From the NCBI RefSeq assembly GCF_055900595.2, contig NZ_CM148325.1: DNA of 64,000 nucleotides; one strand, 5' to 3'. The translations under genes were made by a program, and so were the position numbers. Positions 13,194 through 14,798 of the stretch are shown here, piece after piece. Position 1 is the first letter of the stretch. Each line of letters begins with the position of its first letter. The notes under the pieces were generated by a model. The model had not been told where the DNA came from and ran no database searches. It saw nothing but the letters and a program-made list of their open reading frames with translations.

Positions 13194-14798
13194 ATGAAAA
13201 TTAATCTTCCATTCATACACTGGCCACGGATTAGCAATGATAAGCGCCTCGTGTTATCAGTGGTTGTCTTTATCCTTTTTAATCTCCTTGTATCCTCAGG
13301 AGCGCATCTGATTTACCGGATATTATTCTTTATCCTGGCGCTTCTTATTATTAAGGCAATGAAATCGATTACGTTGCGTTTGATTCTTGCCTTCCCGTTC
13401 ACATTACTGACTGCTGCAGATATCAGTATCAGCCTGTATTCATGGTGTACATTTGGCACAACATTTAATGATGGTTTTGCAATCAGTATCCTTCAGACAG
13501 ATCCTGATGAAGTAATAAGAATGTTCAGGATGTATGTTGTTTATGTTATCGCATTTATTATCCTCTTTTTATTGTTCTTCTGTTCAGCAATAAATAAAAC
13601 GTCCTCATTGCCATCGGAAAATGTCACGGTAATTACATTTTTATTGTTAATTACAGTAACGTTATATTCTTCCTTCCAGTTTGCGTTGAAGAAACAGTAT
13701 CAAATAAATGAAGTTGATCCTTACATAGTCGCTTCCCGGTTTGCCACATATACCCCTTTCTTTAATCTGAACTATTTTGCACTGGCCGCAAAGGAGCATC
13801 AGAGATTAATGACGATTGCTGATACCATACCTCACTACGATCTGGTGATTACGGATAACAACACTGACGTATTTGTTCTGGTGATTGGTGAATCTGCAAG
13901 GACTGATAACATGTCCATTTACGGGTATTCGCGCCCTACCACACCAGAGCTTCAGAAACAGAAATCACGACTGAAACTGTTCACTCAGGCAATCAGTGGC
14001 GCACCTTACACCGCGCTGGCTGTTCCACTGGCGTTATCTGCCGATAGTGTACTGCATCATGATATCCGTAATTACCCTGATAACATTATCAACATGGCGA
14101 ATCAGGCGGGGTTCGATACCTGGTGGCTCAGTGCGCAGTCCGCTTTCCGACAGAACGGAACGGCTGTGGCCAGTATCGCCATGCGGGCCAGAAACAGAAT
14201 TTATGTCAGAGGCTATGATGAGTTACTGCTCCCACACCTGGCTGAAGCACTGAACAGTAATCCGGGGAGCAGGAAACTGATTGTTCTGCATCTGACGGGC
14301 AGCCATGAACCGGTTTGCAGTAACTGGCCCAGAGATAAAGCCGTGTTTAAACCGCTGGATACAGAAGAAGTCTGTTACGATAATTCCATTCATTATACCG
14401 ACAGTTTGTTGGGACAGGTTTTCGCCATGCTGGAAACGCGTCGGGCATCCGTCATGTATTTTTCAGATCACGGTCTGGAGTATGACCCGACAAAAGAACA
14501 TGCCTATTTTCATGGTGGAATAAAACCCAGTCAGCAGGCTTATCATGTTCCGATGTTTATCTGGTACAGCCCGACACTGGGAGAGCATGTCGATCGCCAG
14601 ACGGTGAACAGCGTTTTTTCCACTGCGTATAATGATTATCTGATTAATGCATGGATGGGCGTAACCAGACCGGCTCAACCGAAAACGCCGGAGGAGGTGA
14701 TTACCCGCTGGCAGGGGAAATCCGTGGTTTTTGATGCCAGTCATAACGTGTTTGACTACAAAGTATTACGAAAGAACTTTAATGAACTCCAGGAATAA
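13194..14798 (+). CDS. Phosphoethanolamine-transferase-family inner-membrane protein (sulfatase-like domain), paralog of E. coli YhbX
   Basis: Start set at MKINLPFIHW by alignment to remembered YhbX; conserved blocks (LLTAADISISLYSWCTFGTTFNDGFAIS, VLVIGESARTDNMS, SGAPYTAL, YFSDHGLE). Confidence 0.8.
   Translation: MKINLPFIHWPRISNDKRLVLSVVVFILFNLLVSSGAHLIYRILFFILALLIIKAMKSITLRLILAFPFTLLTAADISISLYSWCTFGTTFNDGFAISILQTDPDEVIRMFRMYVVYVIAFIILFLLFFCSAINKTSSLPSENVTVITFLLLITVTLYSSFQFALKKQYQINEVDPYIVASRFATYTPFFNLNYFALAAKEHQRLMTIADTIPHYDLVITDNNTDVFVLVIGESARTDNMSIYGYSRPTTPELQKQKSRLKLFTQAISGAPYTALAVPLALSADSVLHHDIRNYPDNIINMANQAGFDTWWLSAQSAFRQNGTAVASIAMRARNRIYVRGYDELLLPHLAEALNSNPGSRKLIVLHLTGSHEPVCSNWPRDKAVFKPLDTEEVCYDNSIHYTDSLLGQVFAMLETRRASVMYFSDHGLEYDPTKEHAYFHGGIKPSQQAYHVPMFIWYSPTLGEHVDRQTVNSVFSTAYNDYLINAWMGVTRPAQPKTPEEVITRWQGKSVVFDASHNVFDYKVLRKNFNELQE

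Follow-up and report, generated by a model that had tools for sequence, protein, structure and literature searches.

Wyrsch et al. (2020) described a "sulfatase ORF" beside tia as the founding pair of the SE-PAI, where shiA is reported to lie on the integrase side of this ORF (PMC7371111). Transferases named "putative sulfatase" or "YjgX or YhbX" have been reported in the SE-PAI and in pheU, pheV and selC islands, located by the integrase and tia (PMC7371111, PMC6174562, PMC12054123; Saile et al.). In strain 98202, such a gene is situated beside leoABC-tia at selC. A 2025 study of poultry isolates reports an island that carries scrBKY, hns, pagN, yhbX and int (PMC12054123), which is the gene set of the window analysed here, a stretch of 64,000 nucleotides of an E. 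coli chromosome. RefSeq annotates the island gene of the window as "phosphoethanolamine transferase". As an annotation the gene is not new, and it is ordinary and common. Neither biochemical or genetic work on the island gene or YhbX nor an assignment of the YhbX substrate was found in the literature, and a 2023 review that divides phosphoethanolamine (pEtN) transferases into 11 substrate classes contains no match for the terms that mark uncharacterised paralogs.

The SE-PAI and the pheU, pheV and selC islands carry a like gene in a like place, the SE-PAI ORF (JQ994271) being likened to it by description. The difference lies in the adjacent slot, which contains leoABC or is empty in the published islands, whereas in the window it is filled with a WYL/PDC-type cargo. 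What is new here, and the more interesting by-product of the analysis, is that the transferase gene and a tia-like porin gene flank a slot of alternative defence cargoes. By itself the gene matters little: it was recognised correctly, it is annotated in many records, and it is an accessory paralog of a core gene that awaits characterisation. Among the pEtN-transferase paralogs of E. coli, only the YhbX clade still lacks an assigned substrate, and a mobile copy maintained by selection offers a handle for finding it.

Island at pheV and position of the gene

Reading from right to left, the window contains pheV, the integrase gene, the TPR gene, the transferase gene, the 65-aa ORF, the gene of the 88-aa CxxCxxCC protein and the PDC-M40B-like and PDC-M09A-like genes; further to the left, the WYL/WCX regulator, the tia/pagN-like porin, an H-NS paralog remnant and the scr sucrose regulon follow (Table 1). 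The GC content is 45.1% in the island part of the window, 51.1% in the core part and 43.9% in the transferase gene. The preliminary description, made from the letters of the sequence, had placed the gene on an island, and this placement is borne out by the tRNA-Phe gene, the integrase, the low GC content and the patchy occurrence of the gene, which was found at a coverage of at least 80% in 453 of 5426 complete E. coli genomes.

Table 1. Features of the island arm between the tia-like porin gene and pheV (positions in the window)
Feature	Position	Strand	Basis and remarks
Tia/PagN-like outer-membrane beta-barrel gene	7659..8396	+	Pfam OMP_b-brl 1.6e-20; annotated as tia in other loci; far flank of the slot
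WYL/WCX HTH regulator	8817-9713	+	Pfam, PADLOC (WYL); variable cargo 8817..12722
PDC-M09A-like, 359 aa	9762-10841	+	PADLOC; variable cargo
PDC-M40B-like, 523 aa	10888-12459	+	PADLOC; variable cargo
CxxCxxCC protein, 88 aa	12456-12722	+	variable cargo
65-aa ORF, GTG start, two hydrophobic stretches	12862..13059	+	RefSeq hypothetical protein
In-frame 23-codon extension	13125..13193	+	RefSeq start (557 aa); probably untranslated
yhbX-like pEtN-transferase-family gene	13194..14798	+	534 aa + stop; five TM helices (~19-164), periplasmic catalytic domain (~220-480)
GC-rich hairpin	14854..14876	.	between the convergent ends of the transferase (ept) and TPR genes; terminator-like consensus match, region-wide count at chance
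TPR protein, 347 aa, between transferase gene and integrase	14942..15985	-	Pfam TPR; variable neighbour
P4-type tyrosine integrase	16447..17640	-	Pfam Arm-DNA-bind_3, Phage_int_M, Phage_integrase; RefSeq annotation
tRNA-Phe (pheV), island attachment site	17814..17889	-	ARAGORN; core genes yqgA, speC follow

When the integrase side of the gene is compared between loci, different neighbours can be noted. A TPR gene is present in the window and in locus L008, none is present in L007, L016 and L010, and MFS/AraC genes occupy this place in L018, L032 and L013. Integrases adjoin the island gene at pheV and selC and at a location by glnH, and its neighbours vary on both sides. In tRNA-Phe and tRNA-Sec islands with a tia-type backbone, it belongs to the backbone of the arm nearest the integrase.

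Reading frame, family and active site

The ORF listing gives a frame without interruption at 13125-14798 on the plus strand, in which an internal ATG at 13194 yields a product of 534 aa. In the 69-nt extension preceding this ATG, the differences between alleles are exclusively nonsynonymous; homology with the allele found in the Bunzi context (L013) reaches back to 13179, only 15 nt upstream of the ATG, and similarity to YhbX determined by BLASTP sets in after residue 18 of the 534-aa product. For these reasons, the ATG at 13194 is the better supported start as judged from sequence, and the RefSeq call at 13125 appears to be 23 codons too early, an apparent overcall that is a practical by-product of the analysis. 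In the P0002 allele, the called start is the one that corresponds to the ATG at 13194. No sigma-70 promoters and no PhoP or BasR/PmrA boxes were found in 12700-13200, and the window-wide counts of these signals are at chance.

A BLASTP comparison with K-12 YhbX (from NC_000913.3) revealed 337 identities in 516 positions (65%), with 81% positives and no gaps; the alignment spans residues 19-534 of the island protein and 17-532 of YhbX. The top-scoring representative in a library clustered at 50% identity (P0121) is a protein of YhbX length (541 aa) with 65% identity. These similarities place the island protein in the YhbX clade. Among the other K-12 paralogs, the identity is 28% for OpgE, 29% for EptB, 27% for EptA and 24% for EptC, and BLASTP detected no similarity to BcsG. 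In the Pfam search, the sole domain in the 534-aa product was Sulfatase (PF00884, 1e-50, residues 227-474), and EptA_B_N (PF08019) was not detected. The uninterrupted frame, the Sulfatase domain and the gapless alignment with YhbX identify the full-length reading frame as genuine, and the likeness to YhbX along the whole product, which the preliminary description had stated, holds over the 516 aligned residues.

All NCBIfam models of pEtN transferases match the island protein (down to 1.5e-47), and all matches are far under the curated cutoffs: 162 bits against 500 for the generic lipid A transferase, 97 against 660 for EptA, 146 against 404 and 130 against 900 for CptA, 112 against 493 for EptB, and 39-66 against 1075-1250 for the MCR models. 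The HMM searches thus agree with the family assignment proposed earlier, by the Pfam Sulfatase match and by pEtN-transferase matches that stay below cutoff. The best PDB sequence match is EptC (1.5e-24); NmEptA, CjEptC and MCR-1/2 were also matched.

Hydropathy analysis revealed five segments (19-37, 43-61, 63-81, 115-133 and 146-164) corresponding to five TM helices. An AlphaFold2 model built on an alignment of 89 family sequences (mean pLDDT 92, pTM 0.91) has helices at 17-33, 36-55, 59-87, 104-133 and 142-168. In a fold search with this model, the best match was the periplasmic domain of EcEptC, with a TM-score of 0.76 normalised to the target; the catalytic-domain matches (EcEptC, NmEptA and MCR-1) scored 0.70-0.76 in the same normalisation, and full-length NmEptA (0.63-0.64) and MCR-1 (0.62) were matched over about 560 columns. 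YejM/PbgA, LtaS-type enzymes and true sulfatases rank well behind the pEtN transferases, whose E-values are better than those of sulfatases and YejM by 8-11 orders of magnitude.

Alignment to full-length NmEptA indicated that its residues E240, T280, H383, D452, H453 and H465 correspond to E233, T273, H371, D425, H426 and H440 of the island protein; in NmEptA, H383 and H465 are second-shell residues. Across the 89 family members, conservation at these six catalytic positions is complete or at least 90%. The Cys/Ser-x-Pro-x-Arg formylglycine motif is absent at the position of the nucleophile, where the sequence reads PYTALAVP with Thr273. The sulfatase-type active-site region noted in the preliminary description is thus kept, with all six EptA-type residues in place.

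Given the Thr nucleophile in PYTALAVP and the ranking in the fold search, the product is predicted to be a catalytically equipped enzyme of the pEtN-transferase family and not a sulfatase. Published and RefSeq labels such as "sulfatase", "hydrolase" or "putative hydrolase YhbX" suggest otherwise, and a hydrolase, whether true sulfatase or phosphodiesterase, or an LPS sensor without catalytic activity like YejM/PbgA would be consistent with Sulfatase as the only Pfam match and with the presence of YejM/PbgA and sulfatases lower down in the fold search. We consider this very improbable, since the nucleophile is a threonine outside any formylglycine motif, the EptA metal-ligand set is complete, and the pEtN transferases hold the lead in E-value given above.

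Second copy, origin and selection

Megablast detected the core gene yhbX in about 95% of the complete E. coli genomes (5179 of 5426), while the island copy is present in about 8%. The two products are alike in length, in their five TM helices and in their catalytic residues, and the GC content of the genes is similar (43.9% for the island gene and 43.1% for core yhbX). They differ in locus, as YhbX (b3173) is encoded on the core chromosome at argG-leuU and the island copy in pheV and selC islands. In APEC O2-211, core yhbX is intact at argG-leuU, and the island copy differs from that of the window by one amino acid (H202Y). A low-stringency search found two or three matching places in all six sampled island-bearing genomes and mostly one matching place in genomes without the island copy. 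The earlier reading of the gene as a second copy is upheld by these counts, and relocation of the only yhbX, the alternative named with that reading, is countered by the intact core gene of APEC O2-211. For the genome of the window itself, in which the yhbX locus lies beyond the 64 kb and to which the best match in the complete-genome collection has 99.2% identity over 25 kb, it is a strong inference that the island gene is a second copy.

The island copy, E. coli YhbX, the metagenomic protein P0003 and the homologue of Leminorella grimontii are mutually 62-69% identical, so that the divergence between the island copy and YhbX is as large as that between YhbX and the Leminorella protein; the Hafnia homologue is about 49% identical. 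A pattern-limited scan of genome contigs (nine loci) gave 63% for Leminorella and 49% for Hafnia, and no tRNA was found within 8 kb of the homologue locus in either of them. In a database of 5.8 billion proteins, the island cluster lies at 88-96% identity and the next match at 66%, with none between among the 120 best-scoring hits listed. The near-equidistance of the four homologues and the lack of intermediates among these hits led us to reject a recent duplication of core yhbX. They argue that the island gene is an old, diverged xenolog added to core yhbX, neither a recent duplicate nor a relocated gene.

A phage or plasmid origin was also considered and rejected. No phage match exceeded 32% identity. 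Among plasmids, there is one match of 93%, in a 62-kb record labelled plasmid, and the other close "plasmid" matches are mislabelled chromosomes carrying yhbX. Phages lack the gene, and so, in essence, do genuine plasmids.

Of the 633 genomes with any match to the island gene, about 180 contain only fragments, which are truncated by IS elements or internally deleted, and the gene is for this reason considered dispensable. In O145:H28, a 74-bp remnant is left beside IS1, and in strain 400625 the transferase gene is internally deleted, with the cargo intact. The frequent truncations and IS insertions, together with the failure to find expression signals upstream, would suit an effectively neutral relic that hitch-hikes with the island backbone. 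We regard this as highly unlikely. Between island alleles, dN/dS is 0.12-0.17 (about 0.16) at dS values of 0.12-0.24, which indicates purifying selection, at least as estimated from the alleles compared. All catalytic residues are kept, the ORF is intact in every allele translated, and the 453 genomes with a match of at least 80% also speak against a relic.

Variable cargo slot and putative acceptor

The slot between the tia-like porin gene and the transferase gene has alternative contents: the WYL/PDC genes in the window, leoCBA in L017 (a selC island) and bnzAB in L013, where BnzA and BnzB of Bunzi were recognised by PADLOC at 8e-189 and 2e-201. A dynamin-like defence system shown to protect against phage (bioRxiv 10.1101/2022.05.11.491447), later named Eleos, has the leo operon as its homologue in E. 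coli. On the far side of the slot, the product of the tia-like gene has 65-70% amino acid identity with the tia products of L017 and L013, and the conserved flank extends over 7488-8398. On the side of the transferase gene, comparison with the leo context shows conservation from 12862 on, where the 65-aa ORF starts, and comparison with the Bunzi context shows it from 13179 on. The 65-aa ORF is kept in the contexts of the WYL and leoABC cargoes and is absent in the Bunzi context; a homologous peptide is encoded in L017, and dN/dS is 0.3-0.7. No homolog of this ORF was found beside core yhbX.

The preliminary description had placed the gene next to a candidate defence module. The adjacency is real, since the WYL/PDC genes lie immediately upstream; it is best read, however, as that of a conserved flank to a variable slot and not as a functional partnership. 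Junction-specific queries found the WYL/PDC junction in 380 genomes, the leoCBA junction in 73 and the Bunzi junction in one, and together they match the 453 full-length copies, so that essentially each full-length copy follows one of the three cargoes. This regularity, the short same-strand gaps, the failure to find a conserved promoter of the gene's own and the description of Eleos and Bunzi as membrane-associated (bioRxiv 10.1101/2022.05.11.491447) might suggest that the transferase gene, with or without the 65-aa ORF, is a component or accessory of the upstream defence systems. We consider such a role improbable. The three cargoes have no meaningful similarity to one another by BLASTP and only faint HMM cross-matches (E ~1e-3), the start of the conserved flank shifts with the context, and in strain 400625 the cargo is intact despite the internal deletion of the gene; this argues for a conserved flank and not for an operon partnership. 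The neighbours on the integrase side also vary, and no sulfatase is mentioned in the paper that describes the dynamin-like system and Bunzi (bioRxiv 10.1101/2022.05.11.491447).

The idea that the transferase itself is a defence protein was rejected, as PADLOC-DB 2.0 yielded no family for it at E <= 0.01. A common ancestral system uniting the three cargoes and the transferase gene was rejected as well, on account of the lack of BLASTP similarity among the cargoes. We read the transferase gene and the tia-like porin gene as the flanks of a variable slot for interchangeable defence cargo. In this capacity, the gene reliably marks a place in the island where defence systems are exchanged (Eleos, Bunzi and the WYL-regulated candidate) and which could be mined for new ones. 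A bolder proposal, which we put forward as speculation with little chance of being correct, is that the transferase, the 65-aa membrane ORF and the tia-like porin mark an undescribed intra-island defence hotspot, in which the transferase would go beyond the part of a flank and be the shared envelope-modifying companion on which Eleos, Bunzi and the WYL/PDC cargo rely or with which they cooperate. If so, it would alter an acceptor in the periplasm or outer membrane and thereby block adsorption or prime membrane surveillance.

As for its function, the product is probably a working pEtN transferase of the YhbX clade, located in the inner membrane and facing the periplasm, with a putative envelope acceptor, and its gene is a diverged xenolog in the island backbone at the flank of the defence slot. 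Homology with EptA and MCR-1 suggests that phosphatidylethanolamine would be bound by the membrane domain with its five helices. In the periplasm, Thr273 would be activated by the zinc site (E233, D425 and H426, with H371 and H440) and may take up pEtN as a covalent intermediate in a ping-pong reaction, and the pEtN would then be passed to an acceptor in the envelope.

The acceptor is not revealed by homology, since the four characterised paralogs score almost alike against the island protein (94-110 bits for OpgE, EptC, EptB and EptA), and for the same reason the inference of an acceptor from the nearest of them was rejected. In BLASTP, OpgE shares the first place among the K-12 paralogs with EptC (110 bits); against YhbX it scores 122 bits. 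EptC/CptA shares the catalytic residues and is the best PDB match in both sequence and fold, but has the lowest of the identities listed above. EptA and MCR-1 superpose on the full-length architecture of the island protein, which lacks their PF08019 match.

The pEtN acceptor sites of K-12 are assigned to known enzymes, namely lipid A to EptA, Kdo II to EptB, Hep I to EptC, periplasmic glucans to OpgE and cellulose to BcsG (in part from PMC10525099). Because these sites are already taken, we consider an acceptor other than the canonical positions of lipid A and the inner core more likely than lipid A; the argument covers K-12 only and leaves aside O-antigens, core types other than that of K-12 and conditional modifications.

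The alternative is that the enzyme places pEtN on lipid A, LPS core or O-antigen, making the surface less negative or masking a receptor, and thus alters phage adsorption and resistance to cationic peptides, an island function resembling lysogenic conversion. The top matches in family, sequence and fold searches (EptC, EptA and MCR-1) are all LPS-modifying enzymes, and envelope and defence genes are neighbours. Converting genes of mobile elements often sit next to the integrase, and the island gene is likewise on the integrase side. There is also a precedent in Lpt-O of Shigella, a mobile pEtN transferase that converts the O-antigen serotype (PMC10525099). Nevertheless, we find this explanation rather doubtful. 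The cutoffs for EptA, EptB and CptA are missed 3- to 7-fold in bits, the EptA_B_N domain was not detected, the identity to LPS enzymes is only 24-29%, and OpgE, which acts on glucans, is equally close. Moreover, the upstream region has no PhoP or BasR box, no close homologue is encoded by phages or plasmids, and the deletion of K-12 yjgX, a gene of another island clade, proved to be a false positive for defensin sensitivity (PMC4808223). The effect on lipid A or LPS put forward in the preliminary description is weaker than suggested there, and the YhbX-clade transferase with a non-canonical envelope acceptor is preferred.

Two comparisons with K-12 loci can be added. The yjgX pseudogene of the leuX/intB island also belongs to the pEtN-transferase family and lies at a tRNA, on the strand opposite to the adjacent P4-type integrase; however, it is only 31% identical to the island protein over the catalytic domain and thus represents another clade, and its equivalence to the island gene was rejected. 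The opgE gene adjoins ompX, a gene of a small beta-barrel outer-membrane protein, and a beta-barrel gene is likewise present at the slot of the island gene.

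Defence cargo between the tia-like porin and transferase genes

The interval between the tia-like porin gene and the gene of the YhbX-like phosphoethanolamine transferase family behaves like a slot in which one defence cargo can be swapped for another. The WYL/PDC-M09A-like/PDC-M40B-like module was counted there in 380 genomes, whereas 73 have leoABC (Eleos) and one has bnzAB (Bunzi); combined, the three cargoes cover essentially all 453 full-length copies of the transferase gene. The 65-aa ORF just upstream of this gene accompanies it in the WYL and leo contexts and is missing from the Bunzi context. 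Its dN/dS is 0.3–0.7; it has no match in Pfam or PADLOC and no counterpart in the surroundings of the core yhbX. The gap that separates the WYL regulator gene from the tia-like gene contains a PhoP-box-like repeat; across the window, the number of PhoP-box matches is at chance level.

Coordinates of the slot, its cargo genes and the compared loci
Feature	Locus	Coordinates	Remark
Slot, tia-like porin to transferase gene	window	7659-13193
Same slot	L017 (selC island of strain 98202, leo cargo)	2406-7931
Same slot	L013 (Bunzi cargo)	1644-6045
scr sucrose regulon	window	up to 6314	porin, PTS IIBC, hydrolase, LacI-type repressor; APEC O2-211 annotation comparison
H-NS paralog, frameshifted	window	about 6866-7340	APEC O2-211 annotation comparison
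PhoP-box-like direct repeat	window	8686-8702	GGTTTAAAGTTTGATTA; one mismatch
523-aa protein	window	10888-12459	PADLOC PDC-M40B match, 4.6e-42
88-aa ORF	window	12456-12722	CxxCxxCC (YkgJ-type)
65-aa ORF	window	12862-13059	GTG start; two hydrophobic stretches
yhbX-leuU	L002 (K-12)	5989-8159
ompX-opgE	L031 (K-12)	5451-7598

Annotation of the cargo and transferase genes

Some RefSeq records name the 523-aa protein ‘ATP--cob(I)alamin adenosyltransferase’. This label looks like a misannotation, because the protein matches PDC-M40B and no Pfam family was found for it. Its stop codon is overlapped by the 88-aa CxxCxxCC ORF, which is missed in several RefSeq records (e.g., APEC O2-211) and annotated in others. 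The RefSeq start of the transferase gene, ATG 13125 (557 aa), which adds 13125-13193, is probably mis-called as well, since both the homology boundaries and the allele comparison favour ATG 13194 (534 aa).

Core yhbX and its possible acquisition

The core yhbX, too, may have been acquired long ago. Its GC content is low (43.1%; GC3 42%), the tRNA-Leu gene leuU lies 458 bp from it in K-12, and an IS3 is located within the yhbX-leuU gap in APEC O2-211. In a pattern-limited scan, close homologues were found in Leminorella and Hafnia only.

Porin–transferase pairs and other island content

The island porin/transferase pair is echoed in K-12, where the small beta-barrel gene ompX directly adjoins the phosphoethanolamine transferase gene opgE. 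In strain 400625, the entire island module is inserted beside glnH-dps-rhtA-ompX-opgE, with no annotated tRNA gene within the stretch shown. Within 1-7340 of the window, the island there also bears the scr sucrose regulon and the frameshifted H-NS paralog.
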